Source: Promethearchaeota archaeon | Lineage (GTDB): Archaea > Asgardarchaeota > Hermodarchaeia > Hermodarchaeales > Hermodarchaeaceae | Reading direction: 5' to 3' | Assembly (NCBI GenBank): GCA_048938295.1 | Contig: JBHLMI010000005.1 | Span: forward strand, 30,001-62,000 | Length of the DNA stretch: 32,000 nt | Shown: positions 1,004-19,729 of the stretch, one piece after another | Position numbering within the stretch: position 1 is the first letter of the stretch | Layout: every line of letters begins with the position of its first letter | The notes under the pieces: generated by a model | What the model was told of the DNA's origin: nothing | The model's input: only the letters and a program-made list of their open reading frames with translations | The model's database searches: none | Translations under genes and position numbers: made by a program

Positions 1004-2134
1004 ATGATTGGACAGCCAGATTGGGAAAATATTGCTAAATTCGTGCAAGACGGGCAACTGCCCTTTCCACATTCTTGTGTAAAGGAACAAGTACGTAAGA
1101 GTACACTCGAATGGGAGGAAGTCCCTGGACCAATTCCGACGAATGAACACCCATTTGATATTATTCGAGCCTCGATTAAACGAACAGTTGCCAGATACAA
1201 TATCAAGAGAGTGGGAGTCTGGCTAAGCGGCGGAATCGACAGTAGCTTGATGACAGCACTAACCGCTGAGGTATTAGGACCCAAAAATGTAACTGCCTAT
1301 ACTTTGCGATTTGAAGGTAGTGATGAAAGTCCTAACGCCAAAGTAACTGTTGATCACGTTGGCTGTAATTGGAAAGTTGAGGACATGACGTTAGATGATC
1401 ATTGTAGATTGCTTCGAGCTACGATTCGAAATGCCCTAGCGCCCGTTGGATTTACTACTCACAAACTTCGAATAGCACAGATAAGCAACGAAGAAGAGCA
1501 TGTTTTTTCGGCTCTTGGACTTGATGAATTATGTGGTGGATATCATGCACACGTTTGGGCTTCTGATGATGAGTTTGCTGAGGTTGAAAGACAAAAGTTT
1601 GAGGAGGCCAGTTACAACTTCGTTTGGATCAACGCACAAGAGAGTAAACAGGCTCGATTTAAACTCCATTATCCTTACCTCGACCCTGAGGTAATCGGAA
1701 AGTTCAGATCGTTCCCCCGAGAGTTAAAGACCCATGGTGACGAAACAAAGGTGATGATACGTAAAGAACTTCAAGAAAGTACTATTCTTCCCCCCTCAAC
1801 TATCGAACTGGGAAGAGTTGCTGGGACAAAGGGTGGATTTCTTCCCAATATCCTCACCTGGTGGAATCAGGGTTATGGTAAATGGGCACTTTCACAAGCT
1901 AAAGAAGGACAGCGCCTGTTGGATGAGAATCTCCCGGATAATCCGGTCAATATGGGAAGCGGAATGATGATTCGATTAGAGACTTTTGTACGTAGTTCAT
2001 CCACTCTAACACGCTTAGCGCGACAGGTGTTTCGGCGAAGAGGCGGAACTTTAGGCGGACGCTCGAACCTGTGGATTATCGCACGACTTGCATCAATACC
2101 GATACTCATCGATATCCTTGAAAAAGGAGAATAA
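1004..2134 (+). CDS. Asparagine synthetase-like ATP-dependent amide ligase, synthetase domain only (no N-terminal glutaminase domain)
   Basis: PP-loop VWLSGGIDSS, ALGLDELCGGY (cf. GEGADELFGGY), YPYLD, KVMIR, KGGF..W. About 55 aa precede the synthetase domain and the upstream gap is only 70 bp. Confidence 0.8.
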   Translation: MIGQPDWENIAKFVQDGQLPFPHSCVKEQVRKSTLEWEEVPGPIPTNEHPFDIIRASIKRTVARYNIKRVGVWLSGGIDSSLMTALTAEVLGPKNVTAYTLRFEGSDESPNAKVTVDHVGCNWKVEDMTLDDHCRLLRATIRNALAPVGFTTHKLRIAQISNEEEHVFSALGLDELCGGYHAHVWASDDEFAEVERQKFEEASYNFVWINAQESKQARFKLHYPYLDPEVIGKFRSFPRELKTHGDETKVMIRKELQESTILPPSTIELGRVAGTKGGFLPNILTWWNQGYGKWALSQAKEGQRLLDENLPDNPVNMGSGMMIRLETFVRSSSTLTRLARQVFRRRGGTLGGRSNLWIIARLASIPILIDILEKGE

Positions 2135-2142
2135 ACTAGGGA

Positions 2143-3264
2143 TCATCTCTTTGACTGCGCAGCCTTATAGGCTTGCTCTAATTGTCCACCATAGTGGGAC
2201 CATAAGAGAAAGCGTTGGGCTACCTTACGCACCCTTAATTTTTCTTTATTCCAGCTATCTACATCAGCAAAGTAATTGCGTGTGAGTTGTTGAATTCTTG
2301 TCTTCAATTCACCAATCGATGCCCAAGACCAGCCCACATCATGCTCCTTACAAAACTCGACTTCGGTGGGTTTGGTAGTGGGAACAATGGATTTCAAGCC
2401 TGCATGAAGAAATAGTGAAAACCGATTTTGTATGGAATAAACTGGACGGCGCGTCCACTTTCCTAATAACGCTGCATCACATGTACTGAAGACTTGAAGC
2501 ATCTTTTGGTGAGTTACATAACCGACATTGATGACTTCCTCTGTGTGTATCACGGGATATCCGATAAACACTAAAGAGGCACCGAAGCGATTCTGAAGCC
2601 AGAGTTCGAGGGTTTTTTTATCTGGGCGTTGGTTCAAAGGCAATTGATCTCGAGACACGATTGCGATTCGAAATTCGTCGTCAATGTTCTCGTTAGGGGG
2701 TATTAGTTCAACCTCTTGCTGAGTTGGCACATTGGGTATGACGTACACAAGCTGGTTTTTCCGCCGATATAGTTGTGCAAATTGTTTGCTTACGGTAATA
2801 ATCGGAGATGACTGTATAAGCTGTGCATCCCATTTTCGCCAGTTGTAAAAGGCAAACCTCGTTGCAAGGCGACGAGTAATAGTGCGATTTCGTTTAATCA
2901 CATCTGAACCCTGATAGGTAATTCGAGAACCCCAAATTTCATGGTCATCGTAAACGAATGGGTGTCCTACATCCAAAGCGACCTTAGCAGCAAAGAGGTC
3001 ATGAGCATGGATGAGATCGGGTTCTTCTTCTCGGATGAGCCACCGAAGCCAATCCCGTATTTTATGCAAAGTTCCAAAGAAGCCAGTTTTTTCATACGGT
3101 CCCCAATGCCGATAGTAGACTTTTTCAAACACACCAAAAATTTGATTTTGCGGAGGTCTCCCTCCAGCGAACACAACATCCCAACCTTTCATCTTTGAAT
3201 AGAGAGCGGCACGCTCAACCCGTGTATCGGGCAACCCAACATCAGAAAAATGTAGAATCTTCAT
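2143..3264 (-). CDS. Glycosyltransferase, GT-B fold, GT4-like
   Basis: DTRVERAA, PDLIHAHD, FVYDDHEIW, IITVS, YVIPNVP and YSIQNRFSLFLHAGL (cf. YSLPNKLFEYMAAGL) are GT4-type motifs. Confidence 0.7.
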   Translation of the reverse strand: MKILHFSDVGLPDTRVERAALYSKMKGWDVVFAGGRPPQNQIFGVFEKVYYRHWGPYEKTGFFGTLHKIRDWLRWLIREEEPDLIHAHDLFAAKVALDVGHPFVYDDHEIWGSRITYQGSDVIKRNRTITRRLATRFAFYNWRKWDAQLIQSSPIITVSKQFAQLYRRKNQLVYVIPNVPTQQEVELIPPNENIDDEFRIAIVSRDQLPLNQRPDKKTLELWLQNRFGASLVFIGYPVIHTEEVINVGYVTHQKMLQVFSTCDAALLGKWTRRPVYSIQNRFSLFLHAGLKSIVPTTKPTEVEFCKEHDVGWSWASIGELKTRIQQLTRNYFADVDSWNKEKLRVRKVAQRFLLWSHYGGQLEQAYKAAQSKR

Positions 3265-3329
3265 CCCACAATGCTCCGATAACTCAAGACTATAGTAAAA
3301 CAGGGTGTCGTGCGTATCAAGGCTTCTTC

Positions 3330-3353
3330 AATTCATGAATTTATAAATCGATT
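3330..3353 (-). promoter_or_regulatory. Putative TATA box for the glycosyltransferase gene with adjacent palindromes
   Basis: TTTATAAA at 3340-3347, about 75 bp upstream of the ATG at 3264. It is flanked by perfect palindromes AATTCATGAATT (3330-3341) and AATCGATT (3346-3353). Confidence 0.45.
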
Positions 3354-3375
3354 GTACTCGGATATAACAAACTAG

Positions 3376-4509
3376 TCATGTAATGGCTTTCATGAATTTT
3401 TGTTTAATGTCGATCGGTGAAAGGGAAATTAGAGGTACATCGGCGTTGCCTGCAAGAGCAAGTACATGGATAAAGTTAGGACCGTGGTTCAAGTTTGAAA
3501 TGATTTCCACCAATTCATTCGCATCGTTAGTTTGAAAGACTTGTTCAATCCCCAAACCTAAAGCAACGCGAGCCAGGTCAACAACATTAACGGACGCTGT
3601 TAATTGATTGCCAGTTGAACCATGTACGCCATTATCGATGGCTATGATGGTCAGGTTACGAGAGGCGGTGCTGGCAATTGAGGCTAGAGCACCCAAATTG
3701 GACAACAAGCTACCATCACCATCAATCACTATAACTTGCCGTTTGGTAGAGACAGAAAGCCCTAGCCCGATGGAGGATGCAAGACCTAAACTCCCTAACA
3801 TGTAAAAATTCTCAGGTCGATGTCTGATGTAGTATAGTTCCCGTGATGGGAAACCGATATTGCTCACCACTATTTCATCTTTCAGAATAGATCCAATTGC
3901 TTCGAGCATTTGATAACGGGAAAAATTCCGATTCCACTGTGACCGATCAATCTCTTGGGAATGGGGTGTTGTATAGGAAACAGATGGTGTTTCAATAAGA
4001 GGCGGGCTTTTTTCATGCTGCCAGAGTTCAGGACTGATTAAGACTACTTGCAGGGAGTTTTGAGAGTAGCATTCTTTGATAATTACTGGAAGAGTTGTCA
4101 AATCCGTAGGATTTGCTATTTTTGTATACGAAATTCCTACGGCATCCAAGATCGCCGGTAATCGCTCACCGAGAGGAATTTGCGCAGGAATCGTTTCATT
4201 AAACACCCCACGCCAACTTGCTAAAACGAGTAAGGGAAATTGATAGGTTATGGTCAACGAGCACAGGGCATTGATCATATTTCCTAGCCCTGTACTTTGA
4301 ATTAACATAGCAGGTTTTTTTCCCCCAAGTGCTACACCCGCACAGATTCCGACACCTTCCTCTTCCTTGGTAAGACCAAGGCTTGGAAAGGTTTCACGAA
4401 CCAAATTGTAGAGCCGCTGGAATTTTGCACAGGGATAGGTGGCGACGAAATTTACCCCACCATTTTGTAGAATTTCAACTATAGATTCGGAGAGGTTTAC
4501 CATGATCAT
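3376..4509 (-). CDS. comDE: Sulfopyruvate decarboxylase, fused alpha/beta subunits (ThDP-dependent)
   Basis: Alpha part: ATYPCAK, TKEEEGVGICAG, LIQSTGLGN, SWRG. Beta part: VSNIGFPSRELY, NFYMLGSLGLASSIGLG, ThDP motif DGDGSLL..IDNGVHGSTGNQ. Lies next to cysteate synthase, as in Methanosarcinales. Confidence 0.88.
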   Translation of the reverse strand: MIMVNLSESIVEILQNGGVNFVATYPCAKFQRLYNLVRETFPSLGLTKEEEGVGICAGVALGGKKPAMLIQSTGLGNMINALCSLTITYQFPLLVLASWRGVFNETIPAQIPLGERLPAILDAVGISYTKIANPTDLTTLPVIIKECYSQNSLQVVLISPELWQHEKSPPLIETPSVSYTTPHSQEIDRSQWNRNFSRYQMLEAIGSILKDEIVVSNIGFPSRELYYIRHRPENFYMLGSLGLASSIGLGLSVSTKRQVIVIDGDGSLLSNLGALASIASTASRNLTIIAIDNGVHGSTGNQLTASVNVVDLARVALGLGIEQVFQTNDANELVEIISNLNHGPNFIHVLALAGNADVPLISLSPIDIKQKFMKAIT

Positions 4510-4533
4510 TCATCAACTAAAAGGCTCTAGATT

Positions 4534-5754
4534 TTAAAGAAATAAATCTTCCATCGAAGCGTGAGGTGATATATGCTGCTCTGGTATGATTTTATGAAAA
4601 CCAAAATCCCGTTCCAACCCCTTTAGACCGCCCCCAGTGACATTAAGGAGCGTATAATCAGTGTTCCCAATTCTTTCAAGTTCTATTGCCTGAAAGAGAG
4701 AAGCCACAGCCACTTCTGCAGCGGGAAGGATATCAATCCCTTCAAGAGATTCAAACTTCTTTCCGGCTTGTTGCGCTTCTTTATTAGTAACAGAATACAT
4801 TTGCCCATGCGTACTTGTTAATGCATCATAGACGCCTCCCTCAATGGAATAGGGAGGAGAACGATTCGATAATACTAATGCATGCATCTCCTTAATACAC
4901 TGCTGGGGATTGGGCATATCTTCAGGTAATATTTGGCGACGACCTGCTTGCCATGCATTGTAGATAGGAATAAACGGAGCGTTTTGAGATAAATGAAGAA
5001 TTGGGTCTCCCCTCCAATCGTGATTTTGAAGGCGCACGGCCATTTCCCAAGAAGCTATGGCTCCGGTTCCGGAACCAATTGCTTGGAAGTAATGGTCTGG
5101 TAATCGTTTCATCATAAAAGCAGCATCAAGCATCACTGTTCCCATACCATCTCGGCGAGCAACGTTTTTCGCACCACCTTCAGGTACCACCTTTCTAATT
5201 TGACTAAACCTGTTGGCAGTGTTGATTGCATCGCAGTAATCACCACTTACCGCTAGAAGGTGAATATGATCAGTGGGAGGTTCGGGTGTCCAGAGCATAT
5301 CTAGTCCTGACTCGGGGACAACCAGATACACATCAAATTGTGTTTGGTTGGCAAGGTGACCAAATGCTCTTGCTGTGTTGCCAACTGACGCGATTACGAT
5401 GCCTGTAACTCCGTTCTCTTTTGCCCGGGCAATAGTAGGATTTGATTCCAAATCCTTAAACGATCCAGTGAGATTCCATGCTTCACGGTCAGGCCAATAC
5501 CCAGTAAACGCTATGAAGAGGTTTTTCAATCCTAGTTCCTTTGCTAATCCATTGCTTCGAAAGGTTATAGACCCCGCCTTTGTTGATAGAGGCTGCGAGC
5601 AGGGTAACCAGTCAATGAACCTCCAGAGTCCGGGAAATGGTTTAAGCTTAAGAGAATTAGAATATTCAGTTTTTAGAAGAGAGGAACAGTGGCAAGAAAG
5701 GGCATATCCCTTAAATTCCCTCTTACAGCTTGGACATATTATCCGGTAACCCAT
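4534..5754 (-). CDS. Cysteate synthase (PLP-dependent, threonine-synthase fold)
   Basis: N-terminal CPSC..CHC Zn ribbon, LWRFIDWLP, FTGYWPDR, GSFKDLE (PLP Lys), ASVGNTARAF, EGGAKNVARRDGMGTVM, YFQAIGSGTG, VLSNRSPPY. Strong SD AGGAGTGA before the ATG. Confidence 0.9.
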   Translation of the reverse strand: MGYRIICPSCKREFKGYALSCHCSSLLKTEYSNSLKLKPFPGLWRFIDWLPCSQPLSTKAGSITFRSNGLAKELGLKNLFIAFTGYWPDREAWNLTGSFKDLESNPTIARAKENGVTGIVIASVGNTARAFGHLANQTQFDVYLVVPESGLDMLWTPEPPTDHIHLLAVSGDYCDAINTANRFSQIRKVVPEGGAKNVARRDGMGTVMLDAAFMMKRLPDHYFQAIGSGTGAIASWEMAVRLQNHDWRGDPILHLSQNAPFIPIYNAWQAGRRQILPEDMPNPQQCIKEMHALVLSNRSPPYSIEGGVYDALTSTHGQMYSVTNKEAQQAGKKFESLEGIDILPAAEVAVASLFQAIELERIGNTDYTLLNVTGGGLKGLERDFGFHKIIPEQHISPHASMEDLFL

Positions 5755-6449
5755 ATTTCACTCCTGGGTTCTGTCTTGCCCGAATCTGTTTTTTTATGCA
5801 TTGTATGAATGCCACATTCCCCCCCACATTTACTTGTCCCCTGCCACCGACCCGCTCTTTCAGTTTCCTCATCCGAAACTAGTTTAGTACAAGGAGCGCA
5901 ACCCAAGCTTCGATATCCTTGCCGATATGCTGGATTTACTGGTACATCAAAAATCGCAGTATAACGCCAAATATCAGTCTCGGTCCAGTCAAGAATAGGA
6001 TTAACCTTCATTGTTCCGTTACAGACCTCAAAGGGCTCAAAATCAGTTCTTGTTCGCCCCTCAGTTCGACGCAGTCCAGTTATCCAGGCATCCAAATTCT
6101 TGATTGCTCGAAGAGTGGGTTCGACCTTAAATATTTGGCAACATCGATCGGGATCGGAGATCCAGAGCCCCTCTATGGGTTCTTGATCTGACATAAAGAC
6201 TGTCAAGTTCAAATTCCATTTCTTTACAACCTGATCCTTGAACTCAAAGGTTTCGGAGGGTTTCATTGGAGTCATGATAGCAAAAACCGAAATATCCGGT
6301 TTTATTTGGCGGGCAAGAGATACCACGACCATGCTATCTTTGCCAAAACTACAGGCTACAGCAGTACGCGGATATTCCGAAAGTGCTTTTGCGATGATTT
6401 GTTTACTTTGTTCGATTTTGTCGAGTAGTGTACTGGGTTCGCTGTTCAT
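5739..6449 (-). CDS. cysH: Assimilatory APS reductase (CysH/PAPS-reductase family, [4Fe-4S]-binding type)
   Basis: SFGKDS PP-motif, RCCQIFKVEP, WITGLRRTEG.TR, KVNPILDWT, GYRSLGCAPCT, ERAGRW, C-terminal ECGIH. CC...CxxC is the APS-reductase iron-sulfur signature. Overlaps the cysteate synthase start by 16 nt. Confidence 0.88.
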   Translation of the reverse strand: MNSEPSTLLDKIEQSKQIIAKALSEYPRTAVACSFGKDSMVVVSLARQIKPDISVFAIMTPMKPSETFEFKDQVVKKWNLNLTVFMSDQEPIEGLWISDPDRCCQIFKVEPTLRAIKNLDAWITGLRRTEGRTRTDFEPFEVCNGTMKVNPILDWTETDIWRYTAIFDVPVNPAYRQGYRSLGCAPCTKLVSDEETERAGRWQGTSKCGGECGIHTMHKKTDSGKTEPRSEIWVTG

Positions 6450-6462
6450 TCGTTACCACCAT

Positions 6463-6618
6463 TAGAGATACCTTCACCTAGAGTTTTAATATAAAAAAAC
6501 TTCTGATTAAATCACCTTATTTTCTAGCGTTTTATTGCAGCGGATAGGTAGAGATACGTTAATATAACTAGAGTTGTATTCCCGTTTGCGAAATAAAAAG
6601 CGGGAAAAATCTCGCAAA
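6463..6618. promoter_or_regulatory. Divergent promoter region with repeated and inverted motifs (putative Lrp operators)
   Basis: TTAATATAA at 6486-6494 and 6559-6567. TAGAG(A/T)T at 6463, 6479, 6549 and 6569. Inverted repeats AATATAACT/AGTTGTATT (6561-6580), TTCCCGTTT/AAGCGGGAA (6579-6606) and TTTGCGA/TCGCAAA (6585-6618). Confidence 0.55.
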
Positions 6619-6634
6619 ATGATGTGAGTCCATT

Positions 6635-7132
6635 ATGGTTCAGAAAACCGAGTTATCTGATATCCAACTCAAACTGATTGGCCTTCTTTCACAAAATGCA
6701 CGAGCCCCAATTCGCCGAATTGCAAGTATAATGAAATTAAGTGAGGCTACAGTACGATACCATATTTCAAAACTTGAAGAGAGTGGAGTCATCAAAGGGT
6801 ATTCTGTTATTATTGATCCCACTAAGTTCCAGCTTCCAGTGTTCATCACAATTGGAGTTCAATGCGAACCTTCTTTAACAAGCCGTGTGGCAGAGACTCT
6901 CGCTAGTTCACCCTATTTTTATCTGGTTTGGGTCGTGACAGGTGCACACAACATTCATGCAAAAGCCGCTTTTCCCTCCGCTGAAGAAATGCAACGCGTT
7001 GTAGGAGAAGTAATGAGGCAAACCACGGGGATACTGAGCTATCATCTCTCTTTAAGGTTTGAAGCCATAAAAGACCCCTACCTCTTACCCCATGAATTGC
7101 TAGCTATCTCCCATAATAAGAAATCGAAGTAG
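6635..7132 (+). CDS. Lrp/AsnC family transcriptional regulator
   Basis: LSDIQLKLIGLLSQNARAPIRRIASIMKLSEATVRYHISKLEESGVIKGYSVIIDP is a classic Lrp HTH, followed by a RAM domain with VTGAHNI. Confidence 0.92.
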   Translation: MVQKTELSDIQLKLIGLLSQNARAPIRRIASIMKLSEATVRYHISKLEESGVIKGYSVIIDPTKFQLPVFITIGVQCEPSLTSRVAETLASSPYFYLVWVVTGAHNIHAKAAFPSAEEMQRVVGEVMRQTTGILSYHLSLRFEAIKDPYLLPHELLAISHNKKSK

Positions 7133-7211
7133 TCTGAAACGCAGAGATGAGTATAGCCAATGACAAAAAGAAGCTTGAAATAAAGGATACAAGTTGCTAG
7201 GGTTGATGATA

Positions 7212-8267
7212 ATGAAGAAACTCAAGATCCTTCTCACCGCTTGTGGGTGCCCTGGTGCGGCAACACTGATCCGAATGTTAAAGGAAAACGGTGAACGACC
7301 GGTTGAAATCATTGGAACTGACATGGATACTGAACCGATCGGAAAATACCTAACAGATGGCTTCTACCAGGTCCCTCCTGGGCACTCAGATACTTACATC
7401 CCGAAGATGCTTGAAATTATTGAAAAAGAAAAACCAGATGTGCTATTTCCCGAGTCCAGTTTTGAAGTATATCCCCTCGCCTTAAATAAAAGCCAATTCG
7501 AAGCACTTGGAACACAAGTTCTTGTATCCAATCCCGAATCAATTAAGATGGCTAACAACAAACTACAAATGTATAATGCAATCCAGAAAAACACCGACAT
7601 CCCTTTACCTAAATTTCATTCAGCGAGGTCCTTATCAGAGTTTCACGAGGTCATCGAACAACTTGGATATCCTCGCAACCCCATAGTCTTTAAACCTCAG
7701 GTAGGAAAAGGAAGCCGAGGAGTAAGAATCCTGGATTCAAAGATAGATCGTAAACGCCAATTAATGCAAGAAAAACCTACCAGTAAATACATGTCATTGC
7801 CGGAATTCGACTCTATCTTTGAAAACGTTGAAGCCTTTCCTGAATTATTGGTCATGGAATGGTTAGAGGGGATGGAACTTACCGCGGATACCCTGGCAAT
7901 GGACGGAAGGGAACTCCTTACGACTGTGAAAACCGTCGAACAGGCTCGTTGGGGAGTCATTGTTCGGGGAGAATTGGTCAAGAGGCCCGACTTAGTGGAG
8001 CAGACGCGCAAAATACTAAAAGCGATTCCGTTGAGCTTTTGTGTTAACCTCCAATTTATCGCCGATAGAATAATCGAGATTAATCCGAGAGTCTCGACTT
8101 TTATTTATCAAAAGGATTTAATCGCACCTTACTTAGCAGTTAAATTAGCTATAGGAGAACTCACAGAACAGGAAGTAAGAAAACACCAAACACGTATTGA
8201 CTATGGTCGTCGAATGACACGGTTCATGGATCAGGTGTTTCACAAAGGAGGTAAGCGAGTATTATGA
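7212..8267 (+). CDS. ATP-grasp ligase (carbamoyl-phosphate-synthase-like type found in polysaccharide loci)
   Basis: KILLTACGCPGA, IIGTDMD, NNKLQMY, VFKPQVGKGSRG, VMEWLEGME, EINPRV. The ORF track starts at TTG 7194; ATG 7212 is preferred and ATG 7206 is possible. Confidence 0.8.
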   Translation: MKKLKILLTACGCPGAATLIRMLKENGERPVEIIGTDMDTEPIGKYLTDGFYQVPPGHSDTYIPKMLEIIEKEKPDVLFPESSFEVYPLALNKSQFEALGTQVLVSNPESIKMANNKLQMYNAIQKNTDIPLPKFHSARSLSEFHEVIEQLGYPRNPIVFKPQVGKGSRGVRILDSKIDRKRQLMQEKPTSKYMSLPEFDSIFENVEAFPELLVMEWLEGMELTADTLAMDGRELLTTVKTVEQARWGVIVRGELVKRPDLVEQTRKILKAIPLSFCVNLQFIADRIIEINPRVSTFIYQKDLIAPYLAVKLAIGELTEQEVRKHQTRIDYGRRMTRFMDQVFHKGGKRVL

Positions 8268-12189: not shown

Positions 12190-12329
12190 CGTAAGTTCAT
12201 CTAATCAACCGAATGCGTAGAGGTCATGGTTTTGACTCTTACGATTCCCACTCTTTTTATTTCTTTATTTCAAGATATTCGAGAAAGCAATGCTTATTAT
12301 TCTGAATGAGAATGAAAACACGCCCTTAA

Positions 12330-12348
12330 TATTTAGAATGTCTAAATA
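12330..12348. promoter_or_regulatory. 8-bp inverted repeat next to a TATA-like element in the flippase/dehydratase divergent region
   Basis: TATTTAGA-ATG-TCTAAATA overlaps the end of TTAATATT (12326-12333), about 45 bp upstream of TTG 12392 (SD GGAGG at 12379-12383). Confidence 0.4.
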
Positions 12349-12391
12349 GGAGAAACCCACTTACTATACTTCCTGATGGGAGGCACTTTCC

Positions 12392-13336: not shown

Positions 13337-13386
13337 TTTCAAATCTATGGCATTATTAAGATAACTTATTCAAAGGAGACATTGGA

Positions 13387-14094
13387 ATGAAGATATTAGC
13401 TACAATCTGTGCACGAGGAGGATCCAAAGGAGTTCCTAATAAAAATATCAGAAATCTTGCAGGTAAACCGTTAATCTCATACACAATTTCTGTTTTGAAG
13501 AAATGGGGACAGGCATCGAACATCATCACCTCAACGGATTCGCTTGAAATTGCTCGAGTAGCCAATGCGTATGGTGCAGAAACTCCCTTCTTACGACCAA
13601 AAGAGATGGCAACTGATACAGCACCAAAAATGCCTGCAATCCAACATGCACTAAAATTCTGTGAAGAACATTACAATACAAAATATGATATCGTTGTTGA
13701 TCTTGACCCAACAGCCCCTATACGGACTGTGAATAATTTAACTGAAGCCTTAGGAAAATTCATCCAAACTGAAGCTCAAGTCCTTTATAGTGTCACAGTC
13801 GCGAAAAAGAACCCATATTTCAATATGGTGGAACTTGATGAACATGGCAATGCCCATCTGTCGAAAACCCTTGAATCTGAATACTTCCGAAGGCAAGATG
13901 CACCAATAGTGTATGCGATCAATGGTTCAATCTATGTTTTTGACCGAGACTTTCTAATTGACGCGAAAAGTTTGCATTGTGAGAGAGAGAAAGTCTATAT
14001 TATGGATCAGATTGCATCTGTGGATGTTGACAGAGAAATTGACTTTCAATTCATTGAGTTCCTAATTGAAAGGGGCTATTTTCAATTTGATTAA
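13387..14094 (+). CDS. neuA: CMP-nonulosonic acid synthetase (acylneuraminate cytidylyltransferase)
   Basis: ICARGGSKGVPNKNIR.LAGKPLI, TSTDS, FLRPKEMATD, PTAPIR, INGSIY, SVDVD..IDF. Confidence 0.92.
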   Translation: MKILATICARGGSKGVPNKNIRNLAGKPLISYTISVLKKWGQASNIITSTDSLEIARVANAYGAETPFLRPKEMATDTAPKMPAIQHALKFCEEHYNTKYDIVVDLDPTAPIRTVNNLTEALGKFIQTEAQVLYSVTVAKKNPYFNMVELDEHGNAHLSKTLESEYFRRQDAPIVYAINGSIYVFDRDFLIDAKSLHCEREKVYIMDQIASVDVDREIDFQFIEFLIERGYFQFD

Positions 14095-14114
14095 CCTACA
14101 ATAGTTGGATAAAA

Positions 14115-15164
14115 ATGACTTACAGGATCAAAGTCGGAACAAAATACATCGGCAAAGCTGAACCAGTGTACATCATTGCTGAGGCGGGAGTCAATCACAA
14201 TGGCGATTTTAAGCTAGCAAAACAACTGGTTGATTCAGCAAAGGAAATCGGGGCTGATGCTGTTAAATTTCAAACATTCAAAGCTGACGATTTAGTCACT
14301 AGCAAAGCTGAAATGGCAGACTATCAGAAGAGACACCTCAAGGATGGAGCTAGCCAATATGAGATGATAAAGCGTTTAGAACTCGATTATGATGACTTCC
14401 GCAAGTTAAAGAAATACTGTGATGAAAAGGGAATTCAATTTCTTTCGACACCACACTCTCCCAGTGCCGTAGGCTTTTTAGATCCACTTGTTCCTGTCTT
14501 TAAAATTGCCTCTGGAGATCTAACCAATCTGCCGTTTCTTGAGCTTGTCGCATCATGTAACAAAGCGATTATATTATCCACTGGAATGGCAACTCTCGAT
14601 GAAGTCAGCGAGGCCGTACACGTAATCAGAGACAAAGGTGTCAATCAGCTGGTCTTAATGCACTGCGTAAGCAATTATCCAGCATCATTAGAAACAATCA
14701 ACCTTCGAGCAATGCTGTCACTACAAAAAGCCTTTGGAGTGCTAGTTGGTTACTCGGATCACACAATCGGATTTGAAGCTTCAGTTGCAGCGGTGGCTCT
14801 TGGGGCTTGTGTTATTGAAAAACATTTCACCCTTGATAATAGCTTACCAGGACCTGATCACAAGGCTTCAATGGAACCAAGGCAATTTGCTAAGTTGGTG
14901 CGGATTTTGAGAGGTATTGAAAAAGCATTAGGAGATGGCGTTAAGAAGCCAACAGAATCTGAAATGAAAAACCGGGAAGTTGCTAGAAAAAGCCTCATCG
15001 CTAGGATGGATATCCCAAAGGGTTCAACCATAACCGATAAAATGATTGAAATAAAGCGCCCAGGCACTGGAATTAAACCGAAGCATTTGAAGGACGTACT
15101 TGGGAAGAAGGCGAAAATCACAATAAAACGCGAACAAATACTAAACTGGGAGATGCTTGAGTAA
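14115..15164 (+). CDS. neuB: Nonulosonic acid synthase (NeuB/LegI family) with C-terminal SAF/AFP-like domain
   Basis: IIAEAGVNHNG, GADAVKFQ, FLSTP, KIASGD, LSTGM, HCVSNYP, GYSDHT, IEKHFTLD, GPDH, KRPGTG. Confidence 0.95.
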   Translation: MTYRIKVGTKYIGKAEPVYIIAEAGVNHNGDFKLAKQLVDSAKEIGADAVKFQTFKADDLVTSKAEMADYQKRHLKDGASQYEMIKRLELDYDDFRKLKKYCDEKGIQFLSTPHSPSAVGFLDPLVPVFKIASGDLTNLPFLELVASCNKAIILSTGMATLDEVSEAVHVIRDKGVNQLVLMHCVSNYPASLETINLRAMLSLQKAFGVLVGYSDHTIGFEASVAAVALGACVIEKHFTLDNSLPGPDHKASMEPRQFAKLVRILRGIEKALGDGVKKPTESEMKNREVARKSLIARMDIPKGSTITDKMIEIKRPGTGIKPKHLKDVLGKKAKITIKREQILNWEMLE

Positions 15165-15245
15165 CCATTGATCATCTCAAAAAGAGAATTATAGTGTTTA
15201 ATGGCGTAATTATGTGTCTGCAATTTTGATTGAGGTTACGTTTGA

Positions 15246-16232
15246 ATGAGTTTCAAATCCAAAGATATAAGGAGTTACGAAAGTGGGGATGAGAAAGAGA
15301 TACTAGAATTATTCGAAAGAGTATTTGAAAGAAAAATGTCACTTAATTTTTGGAATTGGAGATTCAGAGATAACCCTTGGGCAAAAGGCATTATAACCTT
15401 AGCATGGGATCAATCTGTCTTAGCTAGTCATTATGCAGTAATGCCAGTTCAAGTCCAGGTCCAAAACACGTTGATTAAAGCCGTTTTCTCAATGACAACT
15501 ATGACCCATCCCGAATATCGTGGGAAGGCCTTGTTTCCTAGATTAGCAAGACGAACCTATGAGACATCGAATGATTTGGGCTATAAACTCGTGTATGGAT
15601 TTCCAAATGCAATTAGCCATGGCGTATTTGTTAAAAAATTACGATGGTATGACCTGGGAAATGTACCGATTTACAGTCTGGACATATCTTGTATCCCTGA
15701 ATTTCTGAAACTTACAGATCCAAGTATCACTTCTGAGAAGATCACATCATTTAATGATGGCGTAGATGAATTATGGAACGCTACTAGAACTAATTTCCCT
15801 ATAGCTGTTCCACGGACCAAAATGTTCTTGAATTGGCGTTTTGCGGACCACCCAGAAATTGAGTACCCCATGTTTCTATTAAAGAATGGAAAAGGAGAAT
15901 TGATAGGCTATTATATTCTAAAGATATTCAAATCTGGCAGAGAAAAAAAAGGACATATAATTGATTACCTTCTCCTCGATACTGTTCTGTTTAGGGATGT
16001 TTTGATTTATGCAAGCGATTTTTTCACCAACTTAGGAATTCAGGATGTGTCTTTTTGGATGAATCAGTCCCTATTTCAAGCTCTAGAACCTGAAATACAA
16101 AAGGTGATTAAAAGGCATTTAATGTCGGAAGTATTTTTTGGAGGTTTATTGTTCGAAAACTTTGAGGGTTCAGAACTTTTCAAGGAATTTCACAATTACT
16201 ATATCACTATGGCTGATTCTGATGTATTCTAA
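15246..16232 (+). CDS. GNAT-family acyltransferase (two-domain)
   Basis: FWNWRFRDNP, TMTHPEYRGKALF (acyl-CoA motif A), LVYGFPN, RTKMFLNWRF.DHP. Confidence 0.8.
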   Translation: MSFKSKDIRSYESGDEKEILELFERVFERKMSLNFWNWRFRDNPWAKGIITLAWDQSVLASHYAVMPVQVQVQNTLIKAVFSMTTMTHPEYRGKALFPRLARRTYETSNDLGYKLVYGFPNAISHGVFVKKLRWYDLGNVPIYSLDISCIPEFLKLTDPSITSEKITSFNDGVDELWNATRTNFPIAVPRTKMFLNWRFADHPEIEYPMFLLKNGKGELIGYYILKIFKSGREKKGHIIDYLLLDTVLFRDVLIYASDFFTNLGIQDVSFWMNQSLFQALEPEIQKVIKRHLMSEVFFGGLLFENFEGSELFKEFHNYYITMADSDVF

Positions 16233-16321
16233 TAGCCAATCCAGCAGAATTCAAAATTCTTTTACTTAGTTGATTTACACATTACCTAGAGTTAGAAACT
16301 AACAGGGAAGAGAGTGTAAAG

Positions 16322-16990
16322 ATGAAGAATGTAATAATCATATCTGCCCATCCAGATGACGAAACTTATGGTGCGGGAGGAACCATTGCCAAACTATGTT
16401 CAAGAGGAGTGCATGTTGAATTAGTGATTTACACGAAAGCGTTTCCTCCTGAGTGGGACGAAGACGAAATAGAAAAACGGAAAAAAGAAGCTTTAGCGGC
16501 GGCAAAGGTTTTGGGAATAAAAGAAGTGCATTTTCTTGGATATTTGACTACTAAGTTGGATGTTACACCTCTTAGAGACTTAATTGACGATTTGAATCAA
16601 ATTCTAAAAACAAGAAATGCAGATACTCTTTTCTTACCATTCATAGGAGACATGCACCAAGATCATAGACGATTATTTGAAGTAGGAGTAAGCGTAGCAA
16701 AACCCACACCAGAGCAAACCCTTAGAAGAATACTGTCATATGAAACTCTATCCTCAACTGAATATGGTACACCGATTTTTGAGACCCCCTTTATTCCGAA
16801 CTACTATGTGAACATCAAAGAGCACTTGGATGATAAAATCTCAGCTGTATCCTGCTATAAATTAGAACTGAGGGAATATCCTCACCCACGGTCAATTGAA
16901 GGCGTAAAAACAAAGGCGAAAGCCCGAGGAATGGAAGTTGGGCTAGAGTTCGCTGAAGCGTTTAAAATATTGAGGTGGGTTTCTGAGTGA
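16322..16990 (+). CDS. PIG-L/LmbE family N-deacetylase
   Basis: SAHPDDETYGAGGTI, DMHQDH, LSYETLSSTE, YPHPRS, AEAF. 4-nt overlap with neuC. Confidence 0.9.
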   Translation: MKNVIIISAHPDDETYGAGGTIAKLCSRGVHVELVIYTKAFPPEWDEDEIEKRKKEALAAAKVLGIKEVHFLGYLTTKLDVTPLRDLIDDLNQILKTRNADTLFLPFIGDMHQDHRRLFEVGVSVAKPTPEQTLRRILSYETLSSTEYGTPIFETPFIPNYYVNIKEHLDDKISAVSCYKLELREYPHPRSIEGVKTKAKARGMEVGLEFAEAFKILRWVSE

Positions 16991-18141
16991 AAAAAATCTG
17001 TGTTATAACAGGTTCAAGAGCAGATTATGGAATAACCAAGATATTGCTCAAGAAAATTCAAGAAAATGCTAAATTGGACTTATCAATCATTGCCACCGGG
17101 ATGCATTTAGATCCAGCCTATGGATATACTGTGAATGATATCAAAAATGATGGATTCACGATAGATTATGAAGTCGATATGTTGTTTGGTGATAGGACCC
17201 GAGCTTCATTAGCGAAATCACTAGGCACTGGCATCATTGGAATCACCCAGTCCCTTGAAAAACTGGAACCTGATTTGGTGATCCTTTTTGGAGATAGGCC
17301 GGAGATGCTCTCTGCGGCAATTGCCTCCGTTTATTTACAAATTTTGACTGCGCACATTCAGGGGGGTGATCATGCTGCGGGATACCACATTGATGATTCT
17401 AACAGACTCGCTATTTCTAAATTAGCGCACATTCATTTCCCGGCCATTGAAGAACATAAGAAGTATTTACTTCAAATCGGTGAAGCCCCAAGCAGGATTC
17501 ATGTTGTGGGAAGCTTGGGATTAGATGAAATTATTCAACTGCAAAGTACTCTCACAGAGAACGAAGAACGAGAAATTGCCAAGAAGTATGAAATTAATTT
17601 CGATAAGCCTTTCATTATTGTCATTAACCATCCCGTGTATACTGAGATGGAAAAAGCTCGAAGCCAAATGAGTACTATCCTAAGGGCTCTTGAAGATTTG
17701 AAAATCGATTCAATAGTGATTTACCCGAGTGGTGACCCTGGAAGCGAAGATATAATTTCAGTTTTAAGCGACTATGAAAACAGAATCTCATGGATTCACT
17801 CCTACAAATCTATTCCACGCAGGGATTTCTTGATATTAATGCATCTAGCTTCCGTTATGGTGGGTAATTCAAGTGCAGGAGTAATTGAAACGGCCTCTGC
17901 TGGGTTGCCTTCAGTAAATATTGGACATCGGCAAGAAGGTAGAATTACACCTCTCAATGTAATCAATGTCGAATACGACGTTGAGAGTATTAAGAGTGCC
18001 ATAAAGAGAGCATTAGATGAGGACTTTAAAGAGCAATCAAAGAAGACGGTTAACCCCTATGGAGATGGTAAGGCTTCAGATAGAATCATCAAAATCTTGC
18101 AAAACCTGAAGGATGCTCAACAATATCTAATAAAATATTAG
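16987..18141 (+). CDS. neuC: Hydrolysing UDP-N-acetylhexosamine 2-epimerase (NeuC/LegG family)
   Basis: ITGSRADYG, TGMHL, GDRPE, AHIQGGD, R.AISKLAHIHF, HPV, GNSSAG..E, NIGHRQEGR, NPYGDG. Confidence 0.92.
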   Translation: MKKICVITGSRADYGITKILLKKIQENAKLDLSIIATGMHLDPAYGYTVNDIKNDGFTIDYEVDMLFGDRTRASLAKSLGTGIIGITQSLEKLEPDLVILFGDRPEMLSAAIASVYLQILTAHIQGGDHAAGYHIDDSNRLAISKLAHIHFPAIEEHKKYLLQIGEAPSRIHVVGSLGLDEIIQLQSTLTENEEREIAKKYEINFDKPFIIVINHPVYTEMEKARSQMSTILRALEDLKIDSIVIYPSGDPGSEDIISVLSDYENRISWIHSYKSIPRRDFLILMHLASVMVGNSSAGVIETASAGLPSVNIGHRQEGRITPLNVINVEYDVESIKSAIKRALDEDFKEQSKKTVNPYGDGKASDRIIKILQNLKDAQQYLIKY

Positions 18142-18175
18142 GCAACATCCGTATAAAGGAACAAAGGTTATTTCG

Positions 18176-18598
18176 ATGTCAGAAGATCGCTTCAAGGATT
18201 GGAAACATCCTGAATTCGATGATAGGGGTCTTACGAAGTGGAATTGGATGTGCCAATATCCCGAGAACCTAGAACTTGGAAAAAATACTGACATAGGTGC
18301 TTTTTCCTACATCAATGCGAGATTCATAGTACAGATTGGAGAAGGAGTAGAAGTAGGATCTCATTGCTCCATCTATTCGCATTCAACTATTGACGACAAG
18401 AAAGGCAAGGTTGTCATAGAACGAAATGTAAAAATAGGAACTCACTCGGTGATTATGCCGGGTGTTACTATAGGAGAAAACACCATCGTTGGCGCATTCA
18501 GTTATGTTACCGAAAGCCTGCCTAAGAATGTGATTGCCTTTGGCGTTCCAGCAAAGGTAATTAGACAACTAGATGAATCAGAGACCAAGGAGAGGTGA
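18176..18598 (+). CDS. Left-handed beta-helix (hexapeptide-repeat) acyltransferase
   Basis: Hexapeptide repeats LGKNTDIG, IGEGVEVG, IERNVKIG..SVIMPGVTIGENTIVGA, and FGVPAK. Confidence 0.85.
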   Translation: MSEDRFKDWKHPEFDDRGLTKWNWMCQYPENLELGKNTDIGAFSYINARFIVQIGEGVEVGSHCSIYSHSTIDDKKGKVVIERNVKIGTHSVIMPGVTIGENTIVGAFSYVTESLPKNVIAFGVPAKVIRQLDESETKER

Positions 18599-18604
18599 AG
18601 CGTT

Positions 18605-19729
18605 TTGGAGATTCCGCTTTTCAAGATACATTGGAGTGAAGAAGATATCAAACGAGTTGAAAAGGTAATTCGCTCAGGCAAGCATTGGTGCATTGGTCCT
18701 GAGATTGAAGAATTCGAAGAAAAAATTGCACATTATTTGGGCTTGAAGGAATGTGTGGTTCTTAATTCAGGAGGAGCGGCATTATTAGCGCTCATGCAAT
18801 CATATGGTTTCTCGAAGGGTGATGAAGTCATCATCCCCTCTTTCACATTCATCGCCACAGCGTATGCTCCTCTGTACGTTGGGGCCAAACCAGTTTTTGC
18901 TGATGTGGAGGAATTGACCTATGGGTTAGATGTATCAGACGTAAAGCAAAGAATCACAGCTAATACGAAGGCAATTATACCTATTCATTATGGCGGAATG
19001 CCGTGTGAAATTGATGCCCTGCAAGAATTAGCAGCGGATCATGATCTAATTCTAATCGAAGATGCAGCTGAATCATTTGGAGCAAAGCTTGGGACAAAGT
19101 TAACAGGAACGTTTGGCGATTCAACAATATTCAGCTTTTGCCAGAATAAGGTTTTTACGACCAGTGAAGGGGGCGCTGTTGTTACTGATAATGGTGACCT
19201 AGCAGAAAAAATCAGGTTATTCAGGTCTTATGGCCGAGTTGTTAGTGGAGATTATTTCTCGGAAAATGGTGACTTGGATTACGTGGAGACTGGGTACAAT
19301 CTTCGAATGTCTACCATTCTTGCAGCCCTTGGTGTCTCTCAGATGGATAGAGTGGACGAGTTGATTTCAATGCGAAGGAAAAATGCGCATTATCTGAACC
19401 AACGACTAAGCGAGATTGAAGAGATCATTCCCCCAACTCCTCCAAGCAAAGAGTACTATTCTGTGTATCAGATGTATACGATTAGAATCAAAGAGGGCAG
19501 GAAAAAACGAGACAAACTAATTCAACACCTAAAGAAGAGAGGAATAAGTTCCAAGGTTTACTTCGACCCAGCACACAAATATTCAGTACTACAGAAGCTT
19601 GGTTTTGGAGGTATCATATTACCTGTAACCGAGCGTCTTTCATCCGAAGTTTTAACTTTGCCAATGTATCCTCATATGACTAATGAGGAGCTTGATTATA
19701 TTTCAGAGGTAGTACACGAATTCTTCTAA
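18605..19729 (+). CDS. DegT/DnrJ/EryC1/StrS sugar aminotransferase (LegC/PglE-like)
   Basis: IGPEIEEFE, NSGGAAL, PSFTFIATA, IEDAAES, FSFCQNKVFTTSEGG (PLP Lys), GYNLRM, LPMYP. TTG start after SD GGAGAGGTGA. Confidence 0.92.
   Translation: MEIPLFKIHWSEEDIKRVEKVIRSGKHWCIGPEIEEFEEKIAHYLGLKECVVLNSGGAALLALMQSYGFSKGDEVIIPSFTFIATAYAPLYVGAKPVFADVEELTYGLDVSDVKQRITANTKAIIPIHYGGMPCEIDALQELAADHDLILIEDAAESFGAKLGTKLTGTFGDSTIFSFCQNKVFTTSEGGAVVTDNGDLAEKIRLFRSYGRVVSGDYFSENGDLDYVETGYNLRMSTILAALGVSQMDRVDELISMRRKNAHYLNQRLSEIEEIIPPTPPSKEYYSVYQMYTIRIKEGRKKRDKLIQHLKKRGISSKVYFDPAHKYSVLQKLGFGGIILPVTERLSSEVLTLPMYPHMTNEELDYISEVVHEFF

Follow-up and report, generated by a model that had tools for sequence, protein, structure and literature searches.

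Methanogen-type sulfonate genes in a variable glycan island of Candidatus Hermodarchaeum may serve the decoration of a surface glycan

The stretch of DNA analyzed here (the window; 32,000 nucleotides) belongs to a metagenome-assembled genome (MAG) of the Asgard archaeon Candidatus Hermodarchaeum with a completeness of 91.6%. It contains a variable gene island whose conserved left border is formed by an HTH-ThiN gene (thiN; 7..933, plus strand; PF10120 ThiN, E 5.7e-37), which adjoins ComDE/GT4 in congeners, and whose conserved right border is formed by a gene for a TPR-CHAT protein (19826..23245, plus strand; Pfam), which is syntenic in G011, G012 and L031. Searches against Pfam and NCBIfam confirmed every gene originally proposed for positions 1004-19729, with families as described. 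Logan contigs from two sediment runs, which are possibly the MAG's own source samples, span positions 1-14002 and 3236-20000 with 0-7 differences. Because independent Logan contigs bridge the region, the adjacency of its genes is not an assembly chimera, and the same gene order is seen again in at least five congeneric species or contigs.

The left part of the island carries a string of four minus-strand genes. The first encodes an assimilatory APS/PAPS reductase (CysH; 5739..6449; NF002537, 205 bits, cut-off 154), the likely sulfite source, whose translation contains an Fe-S-type CC...CxxC motif (DRCC, GCAPC, plus ECGIH). Its gene overlaps by 16 nt with that of a cysteate synthase (4534..5754; TIGR03844, 516 bits, cut-off 325), which shares 65-80% identity with proteins of that name from Asgard MAGs and, as assigned, converts phosphoserine and sulfite to cysteate. 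The third product is a fused sulfopyruvate decarboxylase, ComDE (3376..4509), which exceeds the cut-offs of both of its models (TIGR03845, 187 bits, cut-off 148; TIGR03846, 224 bits, cut-off 221.5), and the string ends with a divergent GT4 (GT-B) glycosyltransferase (2143..3264; PF13439, E 1.9e-8), whose approximately 25 homologues at an identity of at least 46% come, where named, from Hermod-/Hodarchaeota or Promethearchaeota MAGs. Neither ATP sulfurylase nor APS kinase was found in the same genome. The original prediction had remarked that an aminotransferase and an aldehyde dehydrogenase are missing here, and indeed, for the steps on either side of ComDE, the locus encodes neither an aminotransferase nor an aldehyde dehydrogenase or reductase, and the genome has only distant paralogues of those seen in other loci.

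A second string, on the plus strand, starts with a gene for an Lrp/AsnC-family regulator (6635..7132; PF13412 and PF01037). The intervening segment (6450..6634, unstranded) is a putative regulatory region for cysH and lrp, as suggested by an alignment of six orthologous intergenic regions that displays conserved A/T-rich blocks and a mean column identity of 70%. The next gene encodes an ATP-grasp carboxylate-amine ligase (7194..8267; PylC-like N domain and ATPgrasp_Ter in Pfam), the candidate sulfonate ligase, which is rare among Asgard archaea (9 of 400 species genomes). Its confident AF2 model (pLDDT 90) adopts a generic ATP-grasp fold that resembles amino-acid ligases, among others; in a Foldseek search, 2pn1 ranks first, and the top matches include RizA, PylC and biotin carboxylases. 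Overlapping by 4 nt, the third gene encodes a PIG-L/LmbE-family N-acetyl-sugar deacetylase (PIG-L #1; 8264..8884; PF02585, E 1.6e-18). A PIG-L gene lies adjacent or one gene off in all loci read with an ATP-grasp homologue of 53-82% identity, apart from the G016 contig, which is too short to tell. This consistent pairing with a deacetylase implies that a sugar is the amine partner of the ligase.

The remainder of the island is devoted to glycan genes. A 548-aa GT-B surface-carbohydrate protein (8910..10556, minus strand; NF046086, the BFO_1060 family, and TIGR04396, both under cut-off) is a candidate nonulosonate transferase, and its gene is found together with NeuB-type genes in L062, L063 and L074. 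It is followed by a Wzx/MOP-type flippase candidate (10660..12189, minus strand), which has no match in Pfam or NCBIfam, is placed by an Atlas feature search (0.99) with Polysacc_synt/MatE flippase clusters and is replaced at the same position in L031 by a MatE/Polysacc_synt_3 gene. A strain-variable block of eight plus-strand genes (12392..19729) specifies a legionaminic/pseudaminic-type nonulosonate, comprising a 4,6-dehydratase, a CMP-transferase, a NeuB-type synthase, a GNAT protein, a second PIG-L protein (PIG-L #2), a NeuC-type hydrolysing 2-epimerase, a hexapeptide acetyltransferase and a DegT aminotransferase (TIGR03569, 466 bits, cut-off 400; TIGR03568, 419 bits, cut-off 236; all others family-level). 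At the opposite end lies the gene for an Asn-synthetase-fold adenylating enzyme (1004..2134, plus strand; PF00733, residues 68-195 only), which lacks a glutaminase domain, is accessory to the core and has its best PDB matches with AsnB, in the synthetase half.

Comparison of congeners shows a modular island with thiN at one end and the TPR-CHAT gene at the other, framing GT4-ComDE-cysteate synthase-CysH and, diverging from it, Lrp-ATP-grasp-PIG-L. ComDE lies beside thiN in all islands read, and GT4 adjoins it in most of them (exceptions L063 and L064). CysH, cysteate synthase, Lrp, ATP-grasp and PIG-L form a five-gene cassette that is either entirely present (window, L029, G012/L031, G011/L032, P0259 contig) or entirely absent (G010, G006, G014 and L074, each of which keeps ComDE), in a comparison in which the congeners are kin rather than independent samples and several assemblies break at the island. 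Among the 15 genomes of the genus, three contain the ATP-grasp gene and six a cysteate synthase over the cut-off, with a split copy in a seventh (G007), and congeners that have neither cysteate synthase nor ComA nor PEP mutase retain ComDE, mostly with GT4. In fully read islands, the variable part always includes a flippase candidate and further transferases, such as GT4 and MatE in L031 or a GT and a TM508 flippase homologue in L032. Thus, the proposed link between sulfonate and glycan genes is borne out: the former are a conserved, integral part of the glycan island, and in the relatives the sulfonate operon was not found apart from glycan genes. By contrast, the proposed tie to the nonulosonate proved strain-specific, since the G012/L031 and G011/L032 islands combine the cassette with no neu/leg genes, whereas L074 has the same Leg block as the window and neither cysteate synthase nor ATP-grasp. 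Likewise, the Asn-synthetase-like gene does not appear to encode a specific sulfonate ligase, as had been suggested, because it occurs both with cysteate synthase (window, L029) and without it (L062); it is also present in L069, whose contig begins at ComDE and leaves the cassette side out of view.

A known product of such genes is coenzyme M. In the type II (phosphoserine) pathway of the Methanosarcinales, the genes for cysteate synthase (MA3297), ComDE (MA3298) and MMP16 (MA3299) are likewise clustered, and sulfoacetaldehyde and sulfide can yield coenzyme M abiotically (PMC11844431). The window shares with this system a cysteate synthase directly followed by a fused ComDE, both over NCBIfam equivalog cut-offs, and 89 of 400 Asgard genomes contain a ComE over the cut-off, which makes a general cytoplasmic role conceivable. 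The genes might therefore produce coenzyme M or another sulfoacetaldehyde-derived thiol or sulfonate with a cytoplasmic function and lie in a glycan island by chance. However, the window adds an APS reductase upstream and GT4 downstream, its genes lie among glycan genes and are inherited together with them, and its cysteate synthase is only ~53% identical to the Methanosarcina and Methanoperedens proteins. MCR, which would have counted against the original prediction, was not found: its alpha, beta and gamma subunits, MMP16/ComF and the COG1900 sulfurtransferase were all not found in the 91.6% complete genome, nor was MCR alpha in 40 relatives. With neither a known sink nor a final step for coenzyme M detected, this cofactor is an unlikely product. 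A corrinoid methyltransferase context was not found either, the single URO-D gene of the genome having no corrinoid neighbour. Moreover, cysteate synthase is gained and lost jointly with ATP-grasp and PIG-L, unrelated sulfonate supply genes repeatedly adjoin ATP-grasp homologues, and with one ComE per ~3 Mb genome, we estimate chance adjacency at less than ~1% per locus. We thus regard a cytoplasmic role with fortuitous placement as highly improbable. Instead, the position of the genes inside a variable sugar locus, next to a deacetylase-ligase pair, suggests that the sulfonate goes onto a surface glycan and does not serve as a cofactor.

Independent support for sulfonate attachment comes from ATP-grasp homologues (44-66% identical) that lie near sulfonate supply genes in other, mostly Asgard, MAGs. 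In L048 and L053, the homologue is directly adjoined by SsuA-family-like ABC importer genes, and L052 has a permease and an ATPase matching this importer nearby. In G100 and G108, it occurs with an aminotransferase, an XcbC-like lyase (for the underlying chemistry, see PMC9457059), ComA and a PAPS-reductase-family gene. In a specific version of the original prediction, sulfoacetaldehyde is converted to taurine or sulfoacetate. The Asn-synthetase-like enzyme would then join this product by an amide to the carboxylate of the nonulosonate, or the ATP-grasp/PIG-L pair would join it to a nonulosonate or amino sugar that has lost its acetyl group. Every gene named is present in the window, and the adjoining SsuA-like importers fit this scheme. 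L050, with ComD and ComE over cut-off, places a HemL-like class III aminotransferase directly upstream of ATP-grasp-PIG-L and next to ComDE, consistent with taurine, and L036 has an aldehyde dehydrogenase after ComE (SafD model, 463 bits, under cut-off), consistent with sulfoacetate. However, the ATP-grasp of L036 is no orthologue of that of the window, and at 1e-8 it had no match in the Hermodarchaeum genome, where no orthologue was found either of an aminotransferase that would form taurine or of a dehydrogenase acting on sulfoacetaldehyde. In G100 and G108, C3 sulfonates are made by loci that have no decarboxylase close by, and both the independent assortment of Leg block and cassette and the distribution of the Asn-synthetase-like gene further reduce the appeal of this scheme, which we consider improbable as a whole. 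Its simple linear pathway leaves ComDE, usually with GT4, unaccounted for in congeners without cysteate synthase. Taurine and sulfoacetate persist as alternative products, but the co-inherited five-gene unit points at least equally to cysteate. The original prediction is thus partly supported.

BshA and MshA belong to the GT4 family, and BshB and MshB to the PIG-L family. The window shares these two families, and the three-step logic of bacillithiol and mycothiol synthesis, in which BshC or MshC acts as the ligase. Accordingly, GT4, PIG-L and ATP-grasp could glycosylate an aglycone, deacetylate the product and ligate an amino acid to it, generating a soluble or lipid-bound glucosamine conjugate with the sulfonate as aglycone or acyl group, which would act as a redox buffer, osmolyte or glycolipid rather than as a protein or S-layer glycan. 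PIG-L #1 has a weak match to the BshB1 model (49 bits, cut-off 182), GT4 usually adjoins ComDE in the genus, and ATP-grasp, GT4 and PIG-L stand alone in G116 (L049/L051), where neither a flippase nor any further glycan gene lies within 10 kb. In other Asgard families, the operon that contains ComDE also encodes a nucleotidyltransferase and a CDP-alcohol phosphatidyltransferase, suggestive of a phosphodiester or lipid head group. Yet the GT4 of G116 is only 27% identical to that of the window, PIG-L stays far under the BshB cut-offs, the ligase is an ATP-grasp enzyme, and a BshC or MshC homologue is implied by none of the results. The patchy occurrence of the ATP-grasp and cysteate synthase genes within one genus is unlike that of a core thiol or osmolyte, and every occurrence of the module is in a hypervariable island that also has flippase candidates and more transferases, making such a conjugate an improbable product. 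A point against sulfonate attachment itself concerns the acyl donor: ATP-grasp homologues of 62-65% identity have no sulfonate gene within 10 kb in L049/L051 and on the P0236 contig, so that the donor could be an ordinary metabolite.

Sulfonate-bearing surface glycans occur in bacteria and archaea, as exemplified by GalNAcA bearing a taurine amide in the M capsule of Staphylococcus aureus and by sulfoquinovose, a C-sulfonated sugar produced by UDP-sulfoquinovose synthase, in Sulfolobus N-glycans. To our knowledge, an in-locus route via APS reductase, cysteate synthase and ComDE is known for neither of them. Loci for 2-aminoethylphosphonate decoration encode PEP mutase, phosphonopyruvate decarboxylase, AEP transaminase and a cytidylyltransferase. 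They similarly contain a ThDP decarboxylase of the same family within a glycan locus, supplying a small charged C2 substituent. However, the enzyme of the window remains under the phosphonopyruvate decarboxylase cut-off (209 bits, cut-off 312), PEP mutase was not found in the 15 genomes of the genus, attachment must be by an amide or glycoside rather than a phosphonate ester, and the genes inherited together suggest a C3 sulfonate. A mechanistic precedent is the glucuronamide system of the Campylobacter jejuni HS:2 capsule (Cj1437 transaminase, Cj1438 C-terminal ATP-grasp amidoligase, Cj1435 phosphatase), in which Cj1438C, the amidoligase, joins a small amine made by enzymes of the locus to a uronate of the capsule (PMC11800379). 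In both cases, locus-encoded enzymes make a small building block that an ATP-grasp enzyme would link by an amide to a surface-polysaccharide sugar, although the ligase of the window is of the PylC-like/ATPgrasp_Ter type and paired with a deacetylase, and its substituent would be a sulfonate.

Based on the gene neighbourhood, we give a slightly better than even chance to a pathway in which PIG-L exposes the amino group on a sugar of a flipped glycan and a sulfonate produced by the locus is joined to it as an amide. Judging from the family assignments, APS reductase would provide sulfite, from which cysteate synthase would form L-cysteate. The common divergent promoter region would drive expression of Lrp, ATP-grasp and PIG-L; PIG-L would free the amine of an N-acetyl amino sugar, and ATP-grasp would acylate it with a carboxylic acid that bears a sulfonate. 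The most parsimonious choice is cysteate, with sulfoacetate as an alternative and a taurine amide on a sugar carboxylate as a third option. ComDE and an aminotransferase encoded outside the locus may turn part of the cysteate into sulfoacetaldehyde, feeding a second module (ComDE, usually with GT4) that is the least variable in the genus. The Wzx-like protein would then flip the finished lipid-linked glycan, which in this strain may also carry a legionaminic-type nonulosonate specified by an interchangeable block. Collectively, the island is best read as a strain-variable envelope-glycan locus of a non-methanogenic archaeon, in which methanogen-type sulfonate genes appear to have been repurposed to provide a glycan substituent.

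The window corresponds to C38:30001-62000 in a MAG of 2.52 Mb with a completeness of 91.6%. The genes named in the original prediction were all recovered when the window was scanned by six-frame ORF calling combined with Pfam and NCBIfam models. Its sulfonate genes lie in a minus-strand string that consists of a CysH-type APS reductase (5739-6449), whose translation contains the DRCC, GCAPC and ECGIH motifs pointed out previously, a cysteate synthase (4534-5754; 516 bits for the equivalog model TIGR03844, cut-off 325), a fused ComDE protein (3376-4509; 187 bits for TIGR03845, cut-off 148, and 224 bits for TIGR03846, cut-off 221.5) and a divergent GT4 glycosyltransferase assigned at the Pfam family level (2143-3264). 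The reductase gene shares 16 nt with the cysteate synthase gene, and gaps of 24 nt and 111 nt precede ComDE and GT4, respectively. A divergent region of 185 bp separates this string from a second one, which starts with an Lrp gene on the opposite strand (6635-7132) and continues with an ATP-grasp gene (7194-8267; Pfam ATPgrasp_Ter, PylC-like_N and ATP-grasp_3) and a PIG-L deacetylase gene overlapping it by 4 nt (8264-8884). The left side of the locus contains an Asn-synthetase-fold protein lacking a glutaminase domain (1004-2134), while a 548-aa GT-B surface-carbohydrate protein, a Wzx-like flippase candidate and a block of eight legionaminic/pseudaminic-type genes (Leg block, 12392-19729) are found to the right of the PIG-L gene. 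At 15246-16990, the Leg block includes a 328-aa GNAT protein and a second PIG-L protein (90% identical in the related island L074), a second deacetylate-then-reacylate pair that presumably uses acyl-CoA. The conserved right border is formed by a TPR-CHAT protein of 1139 aa (19826-23245); next come a CAAX-protease-like membrane protein (23259-24083) and a 246-aa protein without a family hit. Logan contigs from two sediment runs, which may be the source samples, span positions 1-14002 and 3236-20000 nearly difference-free and thus bridge the locus, which is therefore not chimeric. Four joints in the contig comparison, each seen in a single contig with sides of 20-32 letters, were taken as matches to other organisms, and a bacterial promoter and terminator scan was set aside because the host is an archaeon.

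Orthologous loci gathered by whole-genome searches, exact-protein look-ups and tblastn show that the island between the conserved thiN and TPR-CHAT genes is composed of three kinds of parts. The near-constant part is ComDE, which adjoins thiN in every island read whose contig includes thiN and is itself adjoined by GT4 in most islands, L063 and L064 being the exceptions; ComE was found in 12 of the 14 other genomes of the genus. The second part comprises the reductase, cysteate synthase, Lrp, ATP-grasp and first PIG-L genes, all of which are present in the window, L029, G012 (L031), G011 (L032) and the P0259 contig and all of which are absent from G010, G006, G014 and L074. The reductase and cysteate synthase genes on the one hand and the Lrp, ATP-grasp and PIG-L genes on the other thus behave as one cassette, and ComDE together with its usual GT4 neighbor forms a separate module. 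In G007:C14 (L027/L028), the cassette is decayed, with a cysteate synthase split in two, partial reductase and ComDE genes and no ATP-grasp gene. The third, interchangeable part contains the Leg genes, 548-aa transferase and flippase in the window, a MatE flippase and a second GT4 in G012, a second ATP-grasp, a flippase homolog, a glycosyltransferase and two Phosphodiest-family proteins in G011, a WbuX/HisH/HisF-like set in G014 and epimerases in G010.

This shared anatomy bears directly on the original prediction. Separation of the sulfonate operon from glycan genes in close relatives had been named as an argument against it; the congeners instead have the same island anatomy, and the sulfonate genes do belong to the glycan island. 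The proposed specific ties to the nonulosonate pathway and to the Asn-synthetase-like enzyme did not hold up. L074 shares its Leg block, its flippase and its 548-aa transferase with the window, yet there they are joined straight to GT4-ComDE-thiN without a cassette, and the variable parts of G012 and G011 differ from that of the window. Likewise, the Asn-synthetase-like gene accompanies the cassette in the window and L029 but also occurs in the cassette-free island L062 (in L069, where it is present as well, the contig begins at ComDE and leaves the cassette side out of view). Neither component is therefore specifically linked to the sulfonate genes. Taken as a whole, the earlier interpretation is partly supported.

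The ATP-grasp protein is a clear member of its superfamily, with a conserved nucleotide-binding core and an AF2 model of high confidence (pLDDT 90.3). Foldseek matched this model to 2pn1 (E 6e-19) and to RizA, PylC and biotin carboxylases (~1e-16 to 1e-15), hits that reflect only the generic fold, such that no substrate is inferable from the model. PDB sequence searches with the ATP-grasp, GT4, Asn-synthetase-like and PIG-L proteins similarly returned generic matches or none. The family is narrowly distributed: among 400 Asgard species genomes, just 9 were found to carry a homolog with an E-value below 1e-60, and the named ones among its 409 members in a large protein collection nearly all carry Asgard MAG labels. 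Sulfonate supply genes recur around homologs with 53-66% identity. The ATP-grasp-PIG-L pair of L048 is directly preceded by genes for an SsuA-family-like binding protein, two permeases and an ABC ATPase, and a sulfotransferase, glycosyltransferases and WbpABDE-like genes come after it; L053 (G092) has the same type of importer, and L052 (G119) a permease and an ATPase. In L050, a HemL-like class III aminotransferase precedes the pair, and the opposite strand encodes a GT2 protein, ComE and ComD, with both Com proteins above cut-off. By our own estimate rather than a formal test, which takes each sulfonate gene to be present roughly once in a ~3 Mb genome, this repeated adjacency is far beyond chance. 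No sulfonate gene was found within 10 kb in two contexts, a lone ATP-grasp/GT4/PIG-L trio in G116 and a large polysaccharide locus. All readable loci with an ATP-grasp protein of 53-82% identity have PIG-L next to it or separated from it by a single gene. Sulfotransferase-family genes lie beside the pair in three related islands (L048, L052 and the P0259 contig), whose glycans may also be O-sulfated.

A paralogous ATP-grasp protein (44-45% identical) is found in G108 (L054, G108:C27:84200-89700) and G100 (L055, G100:C1:1196700-1202300), in a string composed of an aminotransferase, the ATP-grasp protein, an argininosuccinate-lyase-like protein and ComA. A PAPS-reductase-family gene lies opposite this string, which has no PIG-L. 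In bacteria, XcbC, which belongs to the family of the argininosuccinate-lyase-like protein, converts the ComA product to sulfoacrylate (PMC9457059). The G100/G108 cluster combines archaeal and bacterial (XcbB/XcbC-like) sulfonate chemistry with a ligase.

Several known systems resemble the island in part. Loci for aminoethylphosphonate decoration are alike in logic only: PEP mutase (TIGR02320) was found in none of 15 genomes of the genus, and ComDE reached 209 bits with the Ppd equivalog TIGR03297, below its cut-off of 312.5. A phosphonate reading was rejected for lack of a PEP mutase. The Leg block, of legionaminic or pseudaminic stereochemistry, encodes the expected NeuB-type synthase, NeuC-type hydrolysing 2-epimerase, CMP-transferase, 4,6-dehydratase, DegT aminotransferase and N-acetyltransferase, with scores of 466 bits for TIGR03569 (cut-off 400) and 419 bits for TIGR03568 (cut-off 236); the other four genes match at the family level, below the PseB, PseC and PseF cut-offs. 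The logic of GT4, PIG-L and a ligase also recurs in bacillithiol and mycothiol synthesis. GT4 and PIG-L match at the family level only (BshB1, 49 bits against a cut-off of 182), and the ligase is an ATP-grasp protein rather than BshC or MshC. A surface glycan is favored by the strain-variable setting of the island and its association with a flippase. A further working parallel is the serinol/ethanolamine glucuronamide system of C. jejuni, in which an ATP-grasp amidoligase acts with supply enzymes encoded in the same locus (PMC11800379). Unlike Cj1438C, a TupA-like enzyme that acts on the carboxylate of a uronate, the ATP-grasp protein of the window is not of the TupA type, and the polarity of the amide is probably opposite; Pfam scans revealed no uronate dehydrogenase gene in the window. 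Attempts to trace the GT4 family did not reach outside the genus.

The cysteate synthase-ComDE pair belongs to the families of type II coenzyme M biosynthesis, and both proteins exceed their equivalog cut-offs, but the defining later features, MMP16 and a coenzyme M-using enzyme, were not found. In M. acetivorans, MMP16 is clustered with cs and comDE (PMC11844431). In the genome of the window, matches to the MMP16/ComF model TIGR03287 were restricted to ferredoxin-part stretches of at most 31 bits, and the possible backup COG1900 (L-ASST; PF01837) had no match. An MCR- or ACR-bearing genome with coenzyme M as the demonstrated product had been named as speaking against the original prediction; no match to MCR alpha, beta or gamma (PF02249, PF02240, PF02241) was obtained in this 91.6% complete genome, and MCR alpha was not found in 40 relatives either. 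Neither this argument nor that of a separate sulfonate operon therefore refutes the prediction. The sole URO-D-family gene of the genome has TFIIB and SfsA as neighbors and no corrinoid protein nearby. The closest homologs of the cysteate synthase derive from MAGs labeled as Hermod-, Hod- or Thorarchaeota (65-80% identity); the Methanosarcina and Methanoperedens enzymes are ~53% identical to the window protein. Of 400 Asgard species genomes, 89 have a ComE above the curated cut-off of TIGR03846 and 201 have a match with an E-value below 1e-30; MCR alpha was not found in the 41 genomes tested. Sulfopyruvate decarboxylase is thus widespread in the phylum. The classical ComA route was rejected for the genus, in which no ComA was found; ComA and PEP mutase are also missing from congeners lacking cysteate synthase. 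Our literature search yielded no paper joining Asgard archaea with cysteate synthase, and the sole one joining them with sulfopyruvate decarboxylase treats gene fusions only.

The consistent PIG-L neighbor points to the sugar as the source of the amine, with a small acid as the acyl donor. If the sulfonate is destined for a glycoconjugate, cysteate is, as a rough estimate, the most plausible substituent, if tentatively so. Its use would explain why the ligase is inherited together with cysteate synthase rather than with ComDE, why the cassette can do without an aminotransferase, why an aminotransferase lies just upstream of the ligase in L050, G100 and G108, which lack cysteate synthase (sulfopyruvate to cysteate), and why the G100/G108 loci have no decarboxylase. 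The amino-acid ligases RizA and PylC are among the structural neighbors of the model, a generic match. Taurine, a possible though doubtful substituent, would suit the importers as well as the class III aminotransferase seen in L050, but leaves PIG-L and the G100/G108 loci unexplained; a literature search for polysaccharides with amide-linked taurine found nothing in the collection searched. Sulfoacetate, which is unlikely, would require an aldehyde dehydrogenase, and such a gene was seen only in L036 (a JGI 3300041074 contig), beside a different ATP-grasp family. We regard any other product as improbable, and a capnine-type sulfonolipid was rejected, there being no acyltransferase of that kind in the locus. 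L036 itself looks like a sulfoacetate-making variant, with PAPS reductase, cysteate synthase, ComD, ComE and the aldehyde dehydrogenase in one string and the different ATP-grasp, four Phosphodiest-family proteins, ATP sulfurylase and APS kinase nearby. L034/L035 and the P0032 contig have succinyl-CoA-ligase-like beta and alpha subunits encoded after cysteate synthase, a class I aminotransferase, ComD and ComE, an arrangement that may convert sulfoacetaldehyde or sulfoacetate into a CoA ester.

The island contains no enzymes for the conversion of cysteate to sulfopyruvate or for steps beyond sulfoacetaldehyde, and the genome has only 27-33% identical paralogs of the L036 aldehyde dehydrogenase and the class I (L034) and class III (L050) aminotransferases. 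About 43 kb downstream on the same contig, L057 (G000:C38:104660-108095) encodes Lrp, a class III aminotransferase and a CoA-acylating MMSDH-like protein, a trio that could supply the omega-amine and aldehyde steps, with nothing tying it to the island. ATP sulfurylase and APS kinase were not found in the 91.6% complete genome; within the genus, ATP sulfurylase was detected only in G007 and as a contig-end fragment in G011, which makes an assembly gap possible. Besides the Fe-S-type APS reductase of the island, the genome has a second PAPS_reduct-domain gene (C47:16761-17294) within a 706-aa open frame.

Collectively, the evidence favors a type of locus in which a non-carbohydrate amide substituent would be made inside a glycan locus, with a real chance of a new ligase activity and of a role beyond cofactor synthesis for the coenzyme M genes of Asgard archaea. 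It is tempting, if rather speculative, to extend this idea to the phylum, such that Asgard archaea, the closest prokaryotic relatives of eukaryotes, would use cysteate synthase, ComDE and ComA for sulfonated envelope molecules rather than for a cofactor. The Hermodarchaeum cassette would then make cysteate from APS, with the ATP-grasp protein as a new kind of cysteate (or sulfo-acid):aminosugar ligase that, together with PIG-L, places it on the flipped glycan, and in other families ComDE, a nucleotidyltransferase and a CDP-alcohol transferase would produce a phosphodiester head group carrying a sulfonate. Two such Asgard families (L066, G129:C1:1775700-1780500, and L067, G024:C3:288900-291600) have ComD and ComE in a common string with genes for a nucleotidyltransferase and a CDP-alcohol phosphatidyltransferase, continuing in G129 with ComA and ComB. 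This arrangement points to a phosphodiester with a sulfonate group, which in MCR-less Asgard archaea would be a lipid head group or a solute; PDB searches with two ComDE neighbors in L066 were uninformative.

If our reading is true, the island would represent the first described case of a glycan locus that itself encodes the de novo synthesis of a surface glycan substituent from inorganic sulfur by way of cysteate, assigning a non-methanogenic function to cysteate synthase and ComDE and defining a new ligase activity. The finding also cautions against taking cs and comDE in metagenomes as markers for coenzyme M or for methane or alkane metabolism. A permanently anionic, phosphate-free decoration of this kind would have consequences for surface charge, for virus recognition and for organic sulfur cycling in marine sediments.
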